A stretch of DNA of 17,795 nucleotides. Source: Promethearchaeia archaeon (GTDB taxonomy: Archaea; Asgardarchaeota; Lokiarchaeia; Sigyniarchaeales; SOKP01). The position numbers and the translations under genes are program-made. Below are positions 6,616 to 17,454 of the stretch, in pieces. The notes beneath the pieces were generated by a model. The model did not search any database, was not told the origin of the DNA, and saw only the letters and a program-made list of their open reading frames with translations. The DNA is taken from the NCBI GenBank assembly GCA_046497275.1, contig JAWOFX010000179.1, positions 1-17,795 on the forward strand, in the 5' to 3' direction. Position 1 is the first letter of the stretch; each line of letters starts with the position of its first letter.

Positions 6616-7854
6616 TTATTGAAATTCTTCTTCTTTTTTCACAATTTGCCTCAATTTTTCAGCATCGGTTTTTACAACTTCGATAAAACTATTCTCAAAA
6701 ACTAGCTTTGGACCACGTTTAAGCTCCATCCTACTATAGACTTTATCTATATTTTGAGAACTCAACCAATCCGAGACAAGGATACCTTTTCGCTTTTCTT
6801 TTTCGGCAAATTTATTTGTTAATACCTCTAATTTAGATAATTTTTGCTCCTCTAACTCTATTAATGCAAAATATGGTGCCTCTCCATACTTTTCATGTAT
6901 TTTTGATTCAAGTCCATTGTTATTTTCAAGCGGAATTGCCACTTTAGAGGTTTTCTTTTCTTGAGTGCGAGTGGTAATAACTATTTTGAAAATTTCGGGA
7001 AACTTATCCATAATTTCATTTGAAAGCTTTTTCTTTAATAAATCAACTTTAGAAAGTTCCATGTCCTTACTCAATTTTATATCAACTTCAAGAAAAATAT
7101 AACGCCCATATGCTCTGATTTCTATATTATCAATATCTTTAACTTTTGGGAAATTTTCAATAAGCTCAATTAATTCCGTTCTTTTCTCAAATTCTATTAC
7201 AGCGTCTAATAAAGTTTTAGTAGAGGTGAGAAATATATCATAACCTCCCTTAATAATAAAAAGAGCTATAACTAAACCAAATATAGAATCTAAAACAAAA
7301 ATTCCATAATACGCAGCAATAAAACCTATTAGTACAGTTGATGAGATAAAATTATCTAATAACTTTTCACTTGTCTCCGATTTAATTATTTCTGATCCTG
7401 ATTTTTTCTCTATCAATTTCAAATATATCGTAGTAGAAATAGAAATTAATAGTGAGATTCCCATTATGATTATTATAAACGGGGAAACTATTATGGTTTT
7501 TATTGAACCAGAAAAGAAATTTAAAATTTCACTAATAGATTCTCTGATTATTGTATAAGCAGTGAAAAAAATAAAGATTGAAATTACTAAGCTAATAATA
7601 TTTTCTAATCGATAATAACCATATGGAAACTTTTCGTTCGGTTTCTTGTTTACAAAAACAATTCCGATCAAAGATGCTATTACAATTATAATATCTGTTA
7701 AATTATCAAAAGCATCAGCTTGGAGCGCAAGGCTGTTTGTGAGCAGTCCAAATAATAATTTTAAAATAAATAGAGATAAATTAACCCCTAGTAAAAGAAA
7801 ATTAATAAAGATCGGTTTCTCATAGATTTTTAAATTATCTTCAGAATTTTCCAT
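6616..7854 (-). CDS. Cation diffusion facilitator (CDF) transporter with C-terminal NifB/NifX-like (FeMo-co biosynthesis family) domain
   Basis: SLALQADAFDNLTD (TM2), FPYGYYRLE, TM5 ...EKLLD, and a dimerisation domain (IRAYGRYIFLEVDI). It ends in a KVAIPLE...G..S.IHEKYGEAPYF domain. ATG at 7854 is preferred over GTG at 7866. Confidence 0.88.
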   Translation of the reverse strand: MENSEDNLKIYEKPIFINFLLLGVNLSLFILKLLFGLLTNSLALQADAFDNLTDIIIVIASLIGIVFVNKKPNEKFPYGYYRLENIISLVISIFIFFTAYTIIRESISEILNFFSGSIKTIIVSPFIIIIMGISLLISISTTIYLKLIEKKSGSEIIKSETSEKLLDNFISSTVLIGFIAAYYGIFVLDSIFGLVIALFIIKGGYDIFLTSTKTLLDAVIEFEKRTELIELIENFPKVKDIDNIEIRAYGRYIFLEVDIKLSKDMELSKVDLLKKKLSNEIMDKFPEIFKIVITTRTQEKKTSKVAIPLENNNGLESKIHEKYGEAPYFALIELEEQKLSKLEVLTNKFAEKEKRKGILVSDWLSSQNIDKVYSRMELKRGPKLVFENSFIEVVKTDAEKLRQIVKKEEEFQ

Positions 7855-7870
7855 AGATTTACACACACAC

Positions 7871-8815: not shown

Positions 8816-10150
8816 ATGACAAATTTATTTCTTCAAATTTTTGTGCTAATATGTTTTCTTGGTGTGGTTATTGTTCTTTTTTTTGAAGATAAGGATTATA
8901 TATACTTTACTTTCATCTTTATTGTGTTAGCCGGATTAGTAACTGCTATTTTTATTCCTGAAACACGTACTTTGGAATTTTATATCGAAAAAATTGAATG
9001 GGAAGTTATTTTTTTCTTAATTACTATGTTTACTATAGTCGAAATCCTTAAGGAAAATAAAGTATTTGATGAAATCGCTCGATTAGTGGTGGTTAAATAT
9101 CAAACAAATGTACGTAAAATGTTTTATGTTATATGTGTGATTTCTACATTATTAGCCACAATAGTTGAAGATTTGTCTGTCGCTATGATATTTGCGCCAA
9201 TCATCATCGTTGCGTGTCGAAAATTAAATATTAAACCTGCAGCATACTTACTTGGAATGACAATTTGCATAAATATTGCGGCGACTTTAACTCCATTTGG
9301 TTCTGCTCAAAATATCCTAATTACAAATGAATTTGATTTGGACATATTATGGTTTATTATTAATTTAGGCCCTTATTTTGTCATATCATTACTATCTACT
9401 CTTTTATTGTTAGATAAGTTTTCTTTGAAAAGAGATATTAATTTCTGTGCTACTCATACATGCCGACCTGAAGAAATTGAGGGGGATACATTATTAAATG
9501 AACCGAATATAAAAAAGCGGAAGTTTGCAATAAATCTAATAGGATTATTAATTTTTATTGTTTTACTTCTTATTGTTCCCGAAATTTACTTGGCAGGATT
9601 AATTGGTGCGCTAATATTCGTGTTAATAAATCCTATCAAAAATAAGGAAGGAAAGAAATCTTTATCCCTCTCAAAATATCTTTCCAATGTGGATTACAAA
9701 CTCATATACTTTTTTATAGCATTGTTTATTTTTGTGGGATTATTAGACGCAAATGGAACATTAATTATCATTGAAACGTTGATTTCGAATGTATCGGCTG
9801 AAAATGAGTTTATCTTGGCCATAATTATACTACTAAGCACTTCAATTTTAAGCGGTTTAATAGATAATACGCCCGTGACTATAATTTTCATTCCGATTGT
9901 AAGATTTTTATTTAAATTACCTGAATTTTATCTCGGTCCTCTTGTTGTCGCATTCATTCTGGGAATTAATCTGGGAGGAAACTTCTTACCACAAGGCTCA
10001 GCCGCAGATTTAGCAACTTTAGAAATCAGTAGAGATAATCAAGTTGAAGATATGTCTTATAAGCGACTATTTAAAGTAGGAGGATTATATGCGCTTTTTC
10101 ACGTTTTACTTGGGATTGGATATCTAGCAGTATTAGTGTTTCTTTTTTAA
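8816..10150 (+). CDS. Ion transporter (IT) superfamily permease, ArsB/NhaD/SLC13-like, 444 aa
   Basis: About 11-12 hydrophobic segments. Motifs IEWEVIFFLITM, AATLTPFGSAQN, LSGLIDNTP and NLGGNFLPQGSAA. Confidence 0.85.
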   Translation: MTNLFLQIFVLICFLGVVIVLFFEDKDYIYFTFIFIVLAGLVTAIFIPETRTLEFYIEKIEWEVIFFLITMFTIVEILKENKVFDEIARLVVVKYQTNVRKMFYVICVISTLLATIVEDLSVAMIFAPIIIVACRKLNIKPAAYLLGMTICINIAATLTPFGSAQNILITNEFDLDILWFIINLGPYFVISLLSTLLLLDKFSLKRDINFCATHTCRPEEIEGDTLLNEPNIKKRKFAINLIGLLIFIVLLLIVPEIYLAGLIGALIFVLINPIKNKEGKKSLSLSKYLSNVDYKLIYFFIALFIFVGLLDANGTLIIIETLISNVSAENEFILAIIILLSTSILSGLIDNTPVTIIFIPIVRFLFKLPEFYLGPLVVAFILGINLGGNFLPQGSAADLATLEISRDNQVEDMSYKRLFKVGGLYALFHVLLGIGYLAVLVFLF

Positions 10151-10196
10151 TCTAAAAAAAAAAATTATATGAGATTCTTATTTTCCCAAATACTAA

Positions 10197-10210
10197 TAGG
10201 ATTAATCCTA
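10197..10210. promoter_or_regulatory. Perfect 14-bp palindrome TAGGATTAATCCTA, candidate operator for the DUF3604 gene
   Basis: Read directly. It lies 14 bp upstream of the ATG at 10225 and ~26 bp downstream of an A11-TTATAT BRE/TATA-like element (10154-10170). Confidence 0.5.
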
Positions 10211-10224
10211 ACCTAATTTACAAT

Positions 10225-12555
10225 ATGATAGATTATTACTCTAAAGTAGAAAAATATGGATGTATTGATCTAAATCCTTCTAAAGAGCATATTGCTGGTA
10301 CTTTTGCCTCATTTGAGTTAATATATACCGCAGGTATTTATGGTATGGATGATCTGGGCGGATTAAAAATCTTATTTAGATATGCTTGTGACCAGAGTCC
10401 TCTTCAGATGAAGAAACCTAAAGCTGTGGGTTATACAACTGCGATTGCATCAAATGGAGCCGCAGTAGAATTATCATATTATTTAAGAGAAGGAGAACGA
10501 CCATGGTATAAAGTACTCAAGATTAGAATAGCTGGGAAGGGCTTAAAGGAGGGAGAAAAAATCATTATTAGAGTGGGAGATCAAAGGTTTGGATCTCCAG
10601 GAATTAGATTACAAACTTTCGTGGAACCAGAATTTGAATTCCGTACCTTAGTTGATGTGTTTTCTACTAATTTTTTTAAACCTATTAAAAGTCCTAAAAT
10701 TGCTCTTATCAGTGGAAAACCTACTAGATGGAAACTTATTTTACCAACATTACGTCGAGCAAAACAAACATTTACATTAAAAATACGTGCTGAAGATAAA
10801 TGGGGAAATCCCTCCAATCAAATAAATGGCAGATTTATTCTTAAATCAAATACTAAAATTGACGGATTACCATCCATTTTTAATTGGAAAATGGGAAATT
10901 ACTCGAAAATTATTGAAAATCTCTCAGTTGAACAAATAAAAAATAATGAATCCGTTATAAGAATTAAATTATTAGATGATACTAAAAATAATCTCACTAT
11001 TTCAAATCCCTTAGTGATTAAAAAAAACACTTCTCTTCTACATTTTTGGGGAGACATTCACGGTCAATCTCAGGAAACTATCGGGACGAATACAGCCCGA
11101 AGTTATTTTGAATTCGCTCGAGATTATGCATTTTTGGATGTTATAGGTCATCAAGCAAATGATTTCCAGATAACAATAAATTTATGGAAAAAAATCAATC
11201 GACTATCGGATGAGTTTAATCATCCAGGTAAGTTTATAACTCTTATTGGGTATGAATATTCCGCAAATACTTCGCTTGGCGGAGATAGAAATGTTTATTT
11301 TCTAGAACCACATCGACAGATTCATCGCTCTTCTCATGCATTAATTCAAGATAAAAGTGATCTTGATACTGATTGTCTCTCTGTCTCTGATTTATTTAGT
11401 GAACTTATTAAAGATAATCCAGATTATGAAAGATCTGTCTTAGTTATTGCCCATGCGGGGGGAAGATACGCAGATATTTTGAACTTTCATGATGGAAGAT
11501 TAGAAACTTCCATAGAGATTCATTCAGCTTGGGGCACATTTGAATGGCTTTTGTGGGATGCATTTGAGAAGAATTATAGAGTTGGAATTGTTGCTAATGG
11601 AGATGATCATAAAGGACGCCCAGGATCTGCATATCCTGGAATTTCTAAATTCGGGGCCTTAGGAGGACTGACATGTTTTTTAAGCGAGGATTTATCTCGA
11701 GAGGCTATTTTTAAAGCTCTCAAACGGCGACATCATTATGCAACAACTGGAGAGCGCATATTCCTAGATCTTATAGGGATTTTAAATTCTGATGGGGTTG
11801 TTTTTGAAAGAGATCCTGCTCTTTATCCTAATAAAACAGTAAATTTTGAAAAATCTAGAGAAACTCGCATGGGAGATATTGTTAAAATATTCAAAACAAA
11901 TAGTAAAACAGATTATAAGATCACTCTTAAAATTAATATAGAAGGGAGATCACCCATAGAAAGAATAGAAATTTTCAATGGAAATAAATTAATAGAAACT
12001 ATTAAGCCATTTTTGGGTAAGGAAAATAATAATAAAATAAATAATGAAGAATTTGAAAGAATAAGAATCTTATGGGAAGGAGCAGAATTTAGAGCACGTC
12101 GACGTAATGTAGAGTGGGTTGGTGCGGCTGAATTTGTCGAGAATACTATAAAAGAAATTAAATCGTTTAATTTCTGGAATGCCAGTGCTCCATTGCGTAG
12201 AGAGGGGCCAAATAAGGTATCTTGGAAGACTATGACATCTGGCAATTTTCAAGGATTTGATGTTATATTAACGGATAGAGAAAAGGGTGTCTTGAGGTTT
12301 AGATCATCTCAAATCAGTTTTGATTTGCTTATTTCTGAGATATCGATTCAAGAGAAAATATTTCAAGTCGGAGGATTGGGGAAAAGAGTACGTATATTTC
12401 GTCTTCCCAATATAAATAAGGAAGACTCTTGTTATTTGGAAAAACATTTTGAAATAGACCCTTTAAATAGAGAAGATGATCGTTTTTGGATCAAAATTAC
12501 ATTCGAAAATGGGCATCAAGCGTGGTCAAGCCCTATTTATATTATAAAAGAATAA
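10225..12555 (+). CDS. DUF3604-family PHP-like (amidohydrolase-fold) putative metallohydrolase, 776 aa
   Basis: WGDIHGQS, GHQAND, GYEYS, HAGGRYAD, EIHSAWG, NGDDHKGRPG, RRHHYATTG and C-terminal AWSSPIY. Confidence 0.75.
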   Translation: MIDYYSKVEKYGCIDLNPSKEHIAGTFASFELIYTAGIYGMDDLGGLKILFRYACDQSPLQMKKPKAVGYTTAIASNGAAVELSYYLREGERPWYKVLKIRIAGKGLKEGEKIIIRVGDQRFGSPGIRLQTFVEPEFEFRTLVDVFSTNFFKPIKSPKIALISGKPTRWKLILPTLRRAKQTFTLKIRAEDKWGNPSNQINGRFILKSNTKIDGLPSIFNWKMGNYSKIIENLSVEQIKNNESVIRIKLLDDTKNNLTISNPLVIKKNTSLLHFWGDIHGQSQETIGTNTARSYFEFARDYAFLDVIGHQANDFQITINLWKKINRLSDEFNHPGKFITLIGYEYSANTSLGGDRNVYFLEPHRQIHRSSHALIQDKSDLDTDCLSVSDLFSELIKDNPDYERSVLVIAHAGGRYADILNFHDGRLETSIEIHSAWGTFEWLLWDAFEKNYRVGIVANGDDHKGRPGSAYPGISKFGALGGLTCFLSEDLSREAIFKALKRRHHYATTGERIFLDLIGILNSDGVVFERDPALYPNKTVNFEKSRETRMGDIVKIFKTNSKTDYKITLKINIEGRSPIERIEIFNGNKLIETIKPFLGKENNNKINNEEFERIRILWEGAEFRARRRNVEWVGAAEFVENTIKEIKSFNFWNASAPLRREGPNKVSWKTMTSGNFQGFDVILTDREKGVLRFRSSQISFDLLISEISIQEKIFQVGGLGKRVRIFRLPNINKEDSCYLEKHFEIDPLNREDDRFWIKITFENGHQAWSSPIYIIKE

Positions 12556-14789: not shown

Positions 14790-15095
14790 CTACATTAGTT
14801 CAATCTCGACTAGGACCGACTCGGGAATTTGAATCTTCATGATTAAATGCATGGACTTTTCGTTTGCTATTACCTCGAAGAGTCTTTTGTGGATCCGCAT
14901 CTCGAATTTAGCCCATGTAGCAGTTCCCTGACCCGAAGGAGATTTCCTGGTAGGGACTTCCAATCGTTTCGTCGGTAAAGGAATCGGTCCGTACTTCTTG
15001 ATGCCTTGTGTTTTACACACCGTTTCAATTTGCTCGCACACAGATTTAAGCGCTTCTAGGTTTATGGATGATAGTCGAATTCTCGCTTTTTGCAC
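14790..15095 (-). CDS. rpsJ: 30S ribosomal protein uS10 (archaeal type), 101 aa
   Basis: QKARIRLSS, GPIPLPTKRL, RKSP..G..TW..FEMRIHKRL and IQIPESVLVEIEL. GTG start with GGTG 7 nt upstream. Confidence 0.97.
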   Translation of the reverse strand: MQKARIRLSSINLEALKSVCEQIETVCKTQGIKKYGPIPLPTKRLEVPTRKSPSGQGTATWAKFEMRIHKRLFEVIANEKSMHLIMKIQIPESVLVEIELM

Positions 15096-15263: not shown

Positions 15264-16412
15264 TTGGATATATTTAAAAAACCTATGTTAAATTATTTAT
15301 ACATGATTTCGAATTTTTTAATATTATCCATCTCAATAACATTATTTATCCTTGTAGGAATCATTTTTCAAAAAAGCCGAAAATTTAAAACCGATATAAA
15401 GTATCTCATGTTCACCTTAATAAGCATTGCTATTGCCAATACGGCAGTAGGATTAAATTTTGATAATTCAATTCTTACATTGATAATGACAGCGTTCTTA
15501 CCATTAGGATTCTTATTTTTATTTTTTCATTATGAAGAAATTTCTCACCCAAGACCGAGATTAAGCGCATTAATAATCTTGTTTGGGTTATATATTCTTT
15601 TAATATCCTTCAAATTAATGATCCCTTTATATATGTGGCTAAATAATATCTCTTTTGATATTCCATATGTAGATTTAAGAGGATATAGTGATATGTTTAT
15701 CTACACTCTCTTTTGGATGTCTAATTTATTCCAGTCATTCATAATTTGTGGCGTCTTTCTTTTGGCTTTTTTAACGGTGATCAAGGTGCTTAAAGTAATT
15801 AAAATTAAGGCTATCATTATTGAATTAGTTGGTTTGATATTTTTAATCATTTATGGGTTGCTATACTTGATTCGAGATATCTTTTTCTATGAAACTGCTT
15901 ATGAGCTTTTAACCTCAATTGCTTTAGTATTCTCCTTAATAGGTCTCGTACTAATAATTTCCAATTTCATAGTCCATCCTGATTATCTCTATTTAATACC
16001 TTTTTCAATATTCAATTTCATGATTTTTAATGAGGGGGGGACTTCTTGTTATTTTAGGAAAGTGGAAGCATTGGATGAAGCTCAACCGCAAAAAAATATG
16101 GAACATTTAATGGCAGGAGCATTATCTGCAGTTTCGACAATGTTTAAGGAAGTTCTTGGAGCAGGAGCTAACATCCGTTATATAGATGCGGATGATTTCA
16201 TCATTTTAGTGACTTCTCTTCCGAAAAAAAAGGGCATTTTTGTAGTGATTTCTCGTGGAGAGGCTGCTCTCTTTAAGAAATCACTTATAAGATTTACTCG
16301 TAAATGGCCTATACAATTGTTAGATGAGATTAATGGAATGTTTGATTTAAATGAAATAAGTCCTAAAATTGATGAATTAATCAAAACTTCCTTTCCCTAT
16401 GTAGCTTTTTAA
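15264..16412 (+). CDS. Membrane protein with ~7 TM helices and a C-terminal longin-like domain
   Basis: Seven hydrophobic segments in aa ~10-240, then a soluble domain with a beta-beta-alpha-beta-beta-beta-alpha-alpha pattern (FMIFNEGG; LMAGALSAVSTMFKEV). The start could be TTG 15264 or ATG 15285. Confidence 0.7.
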   Translation: MDIFKKPMLNYLYMISNFLILSISITLFILVGIIFQKSRKFKTDIKYLMFTLISIAIANTAVGLNFDNSILTLIMTAFLPLGFLFLFFHYEEISHPRPRLSALIILFGLYILLISFKLMIPLYMWLNNISFDIPYVDLRGYSDMFIYTLFWMSNLFQSFIICGVFLLAFLTVIKVLKVIKIKAIIIELVGLIFLIIYGLLYLIRDIFFYETAYELLTSIALVFSLIGLVLIISNFIVHPDYLYLIPFSIFNFMIFNEGGTSCYFRKVEALDEAQPQKNMEHLMAGALSAVSTMFKEVLGAGANIRYIDADDFIILVTSLPKKKGIFVVISRGEAALFKKSLIRFTRKWPIQLLDEINGMFDLNEISPKIDELIKTSFPYVAF

Positions 16413-16420
16413 GCTATAAT

Positions 16421-17320
16421 TTAATAATAGGAATCGAGATTTACACCATATTTTTGATAATGGGCTTTTGTGAATTTCCAACTATTTTTATTATAATTTT
16501 TCAGAAATTCTTCATATTTTTGTGGTTCTCGCCCCTTTGTGGTCATACTTCGTAGGACTGCTTTATTATCATAGACATAAAGAAGATTATTTTTAATTCC
16601 TTCAATATATTTTTGGACTGCTTTCTCAGGAGACATTGCCTGACTTTGCATTTGTTTGAGAAGATCATCTGAAATCTCTTTTAATTTCTCTTCTCCTATG
16701 TCTTCTATAAGTTTCTCAGGGTATTTTACTTTACTTTTTAGATAGATATCTGTCTTTATATAGGATGGAATAATTACAGAGACATTAATATTAAAAATGC
16801 TAAGTTGCCCGAATAATGCTTCAGAAAGACCTACCACCGCAAATTTCGAATAAATATAAGGAGGAGGTTCCGTTAGACCTATAATTCCAGCTCCAGAAGC
16901 AACATTCACTATATACCCTTGTTGTCTTTCCATCAGATCTGGAAGAAATGTATGTATGGAATTGATTATTCCCCACAGATTTACATTTAATACTTTCTCC
17001 CAGTCCTCTAACGTGATTGCTAAGATATTTCCGCCGATGGCAATTCCAGCATTGTTAATTAATAAATCTAATTGATCGAATTTCGAGTAGAATTCTTTTT
17101 TTGCATTTTGATAATCTTTAATCTTGGTCACGTCGCACTTTATACCATATACATTAGCTTCTGAATCAGTTAGCTCTTTTATTACACTCTCTAAATTATG
17201 TAAGTCAATATCCACTAGAAAAAGATTCATTCCCTCTTTCGCAAGTATAGATGCAAATTCTCTTCCTATTCCATTTGCAGCTCCCGTAATAAAACAATTC
17301 CTATTTTTTAATTCTTTCAT
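16421..17320 (-). CDS. Classical short-chain dehydrogenase/reductase (SDR), probably NAD-preferring
   Basis: TGAANGIG, acidic VDID after beta-2, NNAG, NVASG and catalytic YIYSK. ATG at 17320, preceded by GAAGGT, is preferred over the track start at 17350. Confidence 0.92.
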   Translation of the reverse strand: MKELKNRNCFITGAANGIGREFASILAKEGMNLFLVDIDLHNLESVIKELTDSEANVYGIKCDVTKIKDYQNAKKEFYSKFDQLDLLINNAGIAIGGNILAITLEDWEKVLNVNLWGIINSIHTFLPDLMERQQGYIVNVASGAGIIGLTEPPPYIYSKFAVVGLSEALFGQLSIFNINVSVIIPSYIKTDIYLKSKVKYPEKLIEDIGEEKLKEISDDLLKQMQSQAMSPEKAVQKYIEGIKNNLLYVYDNKAVLRSMTTKGREPQKYEEFLKNYNKNSWKFTKAHYQKYGVNLDSYY

Positions 17321-17454
17321 AAAAAAACCTTCTAATAATAGATTATGCAAAATAATTGTTTATATAGATTTCGCGAGATTAATATATGAATATTATATTC
17401 ATAGAGGGATATTTAAATACTTGCGTTTACGATAACTATAAAATCAATAGCTTT

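Follow-up and report, generated by a model that had tools for sequence, protein, structure and literature searches.

The contig JAWOFX010000179.1 of a Promethearchaeia archaeon (assembly GCA_046497275.1; Lokiarchaeia), analysed over its whole length of 17,795 nucleotides (the window), carries on its forward strand a gene for a membrane protein of predicted two-part architecture. In the structural model, seven transmembrane (TM) helices with the N-terminus outside and a packing like that of G-protein-coupled receptors (GPCRs) precede a short conserved linker and a cytoplasmic longin domain of the Sybindin type. The 7TM-longin gene is genuine: 33 homologues share at least 57% identity with it, and a further search gave 143 cluster representatives at E ≤ 1e-3, nearly all of them ∼350-390 residues long and with the same two-domain layout. 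No Pfam match (E ≤ 0.1) and no NCBIfam family was found for the protein. The whole may tentatively be explained as a 7TM-longin sensor or dock that holds a cytoplasmic partner, most plausibly a small GTPase. Unless stated otherwise, residues are numbered in the 375-residue form of the protein starting at M8.

The C-terminal domain spans ∼135 residues and was modelled with a predicted local distance difference test score (pLDDT) of 86 when folded alone by AlphaFold2. DSSP assigns to the AlphaFold2 models strands at residues 242-249, 254-259, 299-302, 305-311 and 317-323 and helices at residues 272-291, 328-339, 343-350 and 355-369, which gives the order β-β-α-β-β-β-α-α-α. The first-pass annotation of this DNA, made from the sequence alone, had read a longin order from a list of short segments, and these segments match the strands and helices of the model. 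In comparisons with VIA-align, the isolated domain superposed best on the first longin domain of Ccz1 (Z 11.6; 134 of 140 residues, 3-139 of the domain folded alone), followed by TRAPPC1 (Z 10.9) and Bet5 (Z 10.6); the mu and sigma subunits of the AP complexes, sedlin, synbindin, Fuzzy, BLOC-3, VAMP7 and Sec22 gave Z values of 8.8-10.3. All of the best 50 rows belonged to the longin or roadblock superfamily, and neither PAS nor GAF domains were among them. Consistently, Foldseek returned 19 matches at E<1e-3 for the domain, led by TRAPPC1, with TRAPP, Mon1-Ccz1, AP sigma and COPI zeta chains coming first and one Roadblock/LC7 chain (3kye_A) included.

Roadblock domains share the order α-β-β-α-β-β-β, with an N-terminal helix and without a pair of C-terminal helices. 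In the archaeal model the linker enters β1 directly and three helices follow β5, and an identity as Roadblock/LC7 (PF03259) was rejected on these grounds. Matches to roadblock and MglB structures were also lower (Z 8.1-8.7) and partial, covering only residues 1-113 of the isolated domain. As modelled, the C-terminal domain is of the longin fold and not of the PAS, GAF or roadblock fold. The eukaryote-like character proposed at first pass is reflected in the best matches, which are TRAPPC1/Bet5, Ccz1/Mon1, Fuzzy and AP sigma/mu. A two-copy prediction of the longin domain scored 0.10 as a homodimer, compared with a mark of 0.42, which is not evidence either way.

Sequence comparisons point, by weak signals, to the Sybindin type of longin represented by TRAPPC1/Bet5 and TRAPPC4/Trs23. 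Among 69 family members, five matched Sybindin (PF04099) and one matched Fuz_longin_1 (PF19036; best E 1.4e-4), all below threshold. The domain studied here stays under the Pfam gathering cut-off for both families; with PF19036 it scores 12.2 bits (E 0.22), the cut-off being 26.1, and another protein of the same genome (C99:228-1028) reaches E 0.023. When a profile of the domain was compared with PDB sequences, yeast Trs23 was matched at E 0.0022 and TRAPPC1 at E 0.09, the aligned part comprising β1, an N-x-x-G turn, β2 and helix 1. The likeness to the TRAPP subunits (PF04099) extends over the strand and helix order of the whole domain (Foldseek E 5e-5, TM-score ∼0.58) and includes a shared β1-turn-β2 pattern, in which a hydrophobic strand is followed by N-x-x-G and then Y; it lies below the Pfam cut-off and is known here from the fold and from weak sequence signals. 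The TRAPP subunits are soluble and act in a Rab exchange factor, as a heterodimer with flanking Bet3-type subunits, whereas the archaeal domain is fused to seven TM helices. Similar differences separate it from the tri-longin Rab exchange factors (Mon1-Ccz1, Fuzzy-Inturned/CPLANE and BLOC-3; PF19036), of which the first longin domain of Ccz1 is its best structural match: these are soluble proteins with three longins apiece, brought to membranes by way of lipids and other proteins, whereas the archaeal protein has a single longin domain and its own membrane anchor.

The membrane domain shows seven hydrophobic spans (residues ∼7-29, 41-59, 62-82, 93-119, 141-166, 176-196 and 205-228). An AlphaFold2 model of the full-length protein, computed with 69 diverse relatives, has a pLDDT of 92.3 and a predicted TM-score (pTM) of 0.88 and contains seven long helices, in agreement with the number counted at first pass. 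The loops following TM1 (residues 30-40), TM3 (83-92) and TM5 (167-175) contain five, two and five Lys or Arg residues, respectively, whereas the N-terminus and the remaining loops contain zero, zero, one and one. With 12 such residues on one side and two on the other, the positive-inside rule places the N-terminus outside and the C-terminal domain in the cytoplasm. This is the topology that the first-pass annotation had assumed, and its two main structural points, a longin fold and a position inside the cell, are both recovered.

In an exhaustive structural comparison, the seven-helix bundle superposed best on structures of the GPCR fold, with Z values of 14-15.5 over ∼200-220 residues and root-mean-square deviations of 3.4-4.5 Å; according to the tool's own caution, helical bundles attain such Z values without common descent. 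The closest were two designed GPCR-like folds (Z 15.5 and 15.0) and Ste2 (Z 14.5). Numerous receptors of classes A, B, C and T followed at Z 12-14, those of class A at ∼14, together with LYCHOS (Z 13.1) and the alkaline ceramidase ACER3 (Z 12.6). GPCR classes are defined by motifs such as D/E-R-Y at the end of TM3 and N-P-x-x-Y in TM7. No GPCR sequence motif was found in the archaeal protein, whose TM3 ends in H-Y-E and TM7 in S-N-F, and neither the protein nor the 69-member alignment gave a Pfam 7tm match. The GPCR likeness of the modelled bundle is taken as one of shape and not of homology, because motifs of GPCRs, rhodopsins and PAQR proteins are all absent.

The family is spread over the Asgard archaea. 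Its profile matches proteins in 167 of 201 sampled Asgard genomes, usually in several copies per genome. Named members come from metagenome-assembled genomes (MAGs) of Loki-, Thor-, Heimdall- and Hodarchaeota and are all labelled hypothetical; close relatives are assigned by their sources to Lokiarchaeota or Promethearchaeota MAGs, and clusters with this shape in the ESM Atlas come from Promethearchaeota. The genome under study encodes five further full-length paralogues (on C84, C8 and C105, and a tandem pair on C74), at ∼25% identity or less to the protein in the window. The gene in the window is a singleton, and same-strand tandem 7TM-longin pairs are found at C74:3-2252 (L011) in the same genome and at L051/L059 and L057/L065 in others. 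The orthogroup of the protein itself, searched with the protein as query, is narrow and occurs in 3 of the 201 genomes. One candidate orthologue with a divergent GTPase (L016) was rejected: its 25% identity places it in another subfamily, and its high score had been obtained with the family profile.

Conservation in the family is uneven. Positions in the cytoplasmic halves and loops of the membrane domain score 0.38 and those in the outer ones 0.28 (Mann-Whitney P 2e-8, the positions not being independent), the longin domain 0.44 and the linker between TM7 and the longin domain 0.56. The most conserved features are this linker, the H-Y-E with which TM3 ends on the inner side, a Glu at the corresponding end of TM6 and the C-terminal F-P-Y. 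Polar TM residues conserved across the family occur only at the cytoplasmic ends of the helices, and H82 is the sole conserved TM His. Within the membrane domain, the most conserved motif of the family is H-Y-E ... R-P-R (15528-15560), formed by the end of TM3 and the following loop, which is a candidate site for coupling to the longin domain. A conserved inner face, a variable outer face and multiple gene copies are together what receptors look like, and the family may be called receptor-like in this sense.

Some members of the narrow orthogroup show interrupted or shortened reading frames. In the only other sampled genomes with the orthogroup (L017, G183:C24; L019, G165:C56), each gene has one in-frame TGA, at different conserved positions: Arg32, which is CGA in the window, in one, and the invariant Gly278 in the other. 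The remainder of both genes is 60-75% identical, with no frameshift, and the TGA codons could reflect recent decay, an error in the MAG consensus or read-through. Five database entries of the orthogroup (P0003, P0015, P0017, P0024 and P0025; 334-335 residues) start at Met42 and are hence without TM1. Of the loci with such forms, L084 is a gene-calling artefact with an open upstream frame, L085 has a TGA at codon 32, and in L086 the upstream region has diverged.

The same type of longin domain recurs in other membrane proteins of this genome. Searching the genome with the domain profile gave 20 open reading frames (ORFs) with this longin type, 12 of which encode membrane proteins. Besides 7TM-longin proteins, these include large proteins in which an N-terminal signal or anchor, an extended outside region and one TM helix precede the longin domain (C98:55-4356, 1434 residues; C109:6274-9033, 920 residues; C59:25461-27785, 775 residues; and C167:36592-37680), a protein of about ten TM helices with the longin domain at its end (C112:12134-14416), and a protein in which the longin domain comes first and four to five TM helices follow (C59:13732-14535). 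In all the membrane ORFs the domain adjoins the last or the first TM helix, on the inferred cytoplasmic side. This suggests that the Sybindin-like longin is a common juxtamembrane, possibly output, module in this Lokiarchaeon. Elsewhere in the genome, three longin-like matches (7173-7448, 10088-10378 and 12146-12463) lie in successive ORFs of ∼640-660 residues at C173:5598-13223, and a Ras-like GTPase gene (C173:12708-13196) directly follows the last of them.

The 7TM-longin protein may accordingly be pictured as a sensor or docking site embedded in the membrane. The outer half, which varies, would sense a small ligand or a membrane state. On the inside, the longin domain would bring a cytoplasmic partner to the cell membrane or control it there, or the inner face, the linker and the longin domain would together pass a signal on. 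The most plausible partner would be one of the ∼55-60 Ras-superfamily GTPases of the genome or another longin or roadblock protein, this being the likeliest partner class because nearly all characterised longins of the matching type act in this way. The mode of binding might resemble that of the longin pairs of TRAPP or Mon1-Ccz1 that hold Rab GTPases, and the protein could serve as an exchange factor, as a simple anchor or in some other way.

Several points weigh against this explanation. Nothing in the analysis points directly to a particular partner. The outer loops are short and no ligand site was identified, and a Z of ∼15 for the helical bundle barely exceeds the level that the tool's note treats as a common helical-bundle arrangement. 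The β1-β2 loop of the longin domain is N-E-G-G, with an invariant Gly, and is without the Gly-Pro motif of the longins of GTPase-activating proteins (GAPs); the GAP-type longins of FLCN, NPRL2 and SMCR8 have this motif in the β1-β2 region together with an arginine finger (PMC12290439). The genome contains 54 matches to the Pfam Ras model and 60 GTPase ORFs by a hidden Markov model built from these, and none of the Ras-family genes lies on the 17.8-kb contig. Orthologues at 57-72% identity are found in unrelated neighbourhoods with no GTPase gene. Within the genome, a GTPase gene lies within 3 kb of 3 of the 20 longin-type ORFs, compared with 2.3 expected from random placement (P = 0.40), and among family loci from other genomes only 2 of 30 have one within 1.5 kb. 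The paralogue on C84 (C84:2197-4131; L002/L045), which is 25% identical to the protein in the window, starts 187 bp downstream of a same-strand Ras-like GTPase gene, an adjacency that is absent from 23 related loci.

Gene order gives the GTPase link no support. The more specific claim of the first-pass annotation, that of a sensor signalling to a small GTPase in the manner of a GPCR or an exchange factor, was not borne out by it: adjacency is neither enriched nor conserved, and what speaks for the claim is the fold. In a cultured Lokiarchaeon, small GTPase genes generally share no operon with genes for longins or roadblocks (Tran et al. 2024, PMC10933270), and the missing linkage is for this reason only weak evidence against a GTPase partner. 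Among the orthologue contexts compared, no conserved neighbour gene was found. Two genes, that for ribosomal protein S10 (14790-15095) and, upstream, that for a DUF3604 protein (10225-12555), recur beside the orthologue in GCA_014730125.1 (L085) and not beside more distant orthologues.

Ras-superfamily GTPases number in the dozens in Asgard genomes, which also encode many longin and roadblock proteins; these GTPases have neither prenylation signals nor the lipid anchors that hold eukaryotic ones at membranes, and what they bind and do is not yet known (Tran et al. 2024, PMC10933270). A phylum-wide, multi-copy 7TM-longin family would offer a testable route by which GTPase switches are brought to the cell membrane or controlled from it. 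The expansion and domain shuffling of longins in Asgard archaea are well documented (PMC11188069, PMC10933270, PMC12290439; bioRxiv 10.1101/2020.10.19.343400). The Asgard longin and roadblock proteins described so far (PMC10933270; PDB 8yqg, 9jue, 7yh1) belong to the same superfamily and phylum as the C-terminal domain, which matches the Lokiarchaeal longin 8yqg at Z 8.0 and Asgard roadblocks at Z 8.2-8.7; they are soluble or fused to GTPases, whereas the present domain is fused to seven TM helices. No published description of a 7TM-longin fusion was found in the literature searched, and a 2026 preprint names '7TM proteins' among earlier-reported Asgard families without details. The family bears on the origin of seven-helix receptors and of longin-based GTPase regulation, and if its longin domain binds something else, it still constitutes a major group of Asgard membrane proteins that lacks annotation.

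A related logic exists in LYCHOS (GPR155), a seven-helix sensor that signals to the longin-containing GATOR1, a regulator of Rag GTPases. LYCHOS, by its GPCR-like domain, is one of the structural matches given above. In that system the sensor and the longins are separate polypeptides and the GATOR1 longins, with their arginine finger, belong to the GAP type; no homology to the archaeal protein is claimed. A bolder version of the sensor-or-dock explanation would see in the family a large and diversifying Asgard receptor class, in which a GPCR-shaped sensor fused to a TRAPP-type longin captures or activates lipid-free small GTPases at the cell membrane, with the same longin serving as the common juxtamembrane output of several architectures. 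This version is unlikely as matters stand; if true, the family would be a one-polypeptide forerunner of the eukaryotic logic that leads from membrane receptor to longin regulator to small GTPase.

Among the alternatives, the one that survives best is a prokaryotic sensor of the HisKA_7TM type whose output has been exchanged for a longin adaptor acting in two-component or other non-GTPase signalling. HisKA_7TM domains normally precede histidine kinases. As in the archaeal protein, seven helices joined by short loops lead directly into a cytoplasmic output module in HisKA_7TM (PF16927) and 7TMR-DISM proteins; this module is a kinase, cyclase or phosphatase in their case and a longin domain here, and no match at the Pfam level connects them. 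Language-model features of residues 1-236 fell with HisKA_7TM clusters (score 0.84, a lead only), and in one source a fragment of an orthologue carries the label 'signal transduction histidine kinase'. When the alignment of the membrane domain was compared by hhalign with Lokiarchaeial HisKA_7TM, it matched at 56% probability over 52 collinear columns, compared with 2% for reversed controls; this match spans two helices only (TM2-TM3), and none of the 69 alignment members matched PF16927 at E ≤ 0.05. Liu et al. (bioRxiv 10.1101/2020.10.19.343400) report numerous fusions of longins with two-component domains in Asgard archaea. The present protein carries no kinase or receiver domain and no other domain of two-component systems, and none is conserved next to its gene. 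This origin is considered unlikely.

Participation in trafficking or membrane remodelling is a weaker candidate and appears improbable. In this case the longin domain would recruit coat, ESCRT or fusion machinery to the membrane or to protrusions, as do the longin SNAREs, the small subunits of the AP and COPI coats and SR-alpha. Longins of AP sigma and mu, COPI zeta and delta, Sec22, VAMP7 and SR-alpha do match the domain (Z 7.5-10.3), and Asgard multidomain proteins linked to ESCRT often contain longin domains (PMC11188069). However, the top structural matches are longins of the exchange-factor type, the protein has neither a SNARE motif nor a coiled coil, its order of membrane domain first and longin last is the reverse of that in longin SNAREs, and no gene for ESCRT or coat components is conserved next to its own. 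That the seven helices form a longin-regulated enzyme, transporter or light sensor, such as a PAQR- or alkaline-ceramidase-like hydrolase or a rhodopsin, is very improbable despite the match to ACER3 (Z 12.6): TM7 (205-228) has no His and no Lys, so that both the H-x-x-x-H zinc motif of PAQR proteins and ceramidases and the Lys of the retinal Schiff base are missing, on which grounds both readings were rejected; no rhodopsin is among the best 50 structural rows, and the conserved polar TM residues are confined to the cytoplasmic ends.

The positions of the gene and its parts are collected in Table 1. The window is AT-rich (G+C ∼26-36%). The frame beginning with TTG contains further in-frame ATG codons at 15285 and 15303, the latter encoding residue 14 of the TTG frame. 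All orthologues start at this Met, so that the likely product is the 369-residue form, and the TTG start is probably an artefact of the ORF finder. The TATA-like box preceding the gene could give rise to a leaderless transcript.

Table 1. Coordinates of the 7TM-longin gene, its domains and its immediate neighbours in the window.
Feature	Position	Strand	Basis
Open reading frame from TTG, 382 residues and stop	15264-16412	+	ORF listing
Most likely coding sequence, ATG at 15303, 369 residues, TAA at 16410-16412	15303-16412	+	Orthologues align from this Met
A/T-rich TATA-like box (putative), ∼27 nt 5' of the ATG at 15303	15270-15281	+	Read from the sequence; region very AT-rich
Seven-transmembrane domain (predicted), N-terminus outside	15303-15974	+	Hydropathy, AlphaFold2 helices, GPCR-fold matches
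Cytoplasmic end of TM3 and following loop (H-Y-E ... R-P-R)	15528-15560	+	Alignments, conservation scores
Linker from TM7 to longin domain with invariant Pro; most conserved segment of the whole family	15969-16007	+	Alignment, conservation scores
Cytoplasmic longin domain (predicted), Sybindin/TRAPPC1-like, nearly invariant F-P-Y at end	16008-16409	+	AlphaFold2, VIA-align, Foldseek, weak sequence signals
Ribosomal protein S10 gene, divergent from the 7TM-longin gene	14790-15095	-	
Short-chain dehydrogenase gene, convergent with the 7TM-longin gene	16421-17350	-	

Transcripts of the gene may be present in salt-lake communities. Read-sized contigs identical to 15816-16435 were found at low depth in metatranscriptomes from four salt-lake runs of two studies. 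The 5' half of the gene is uncovered and carry-over of DNA is possible, and these contigs are compatible with expression as a hint only.

Elsewhere in the window, the reverse strand at 6616-7866 encodes a cation-efflux (CDF) transporter with a C-terminal domain like those that bind the FeMo cofactor of dinitrogenase (PF02579). This domain lies after the zinc-transporter dimerisation domain, which is an unusual fusion.

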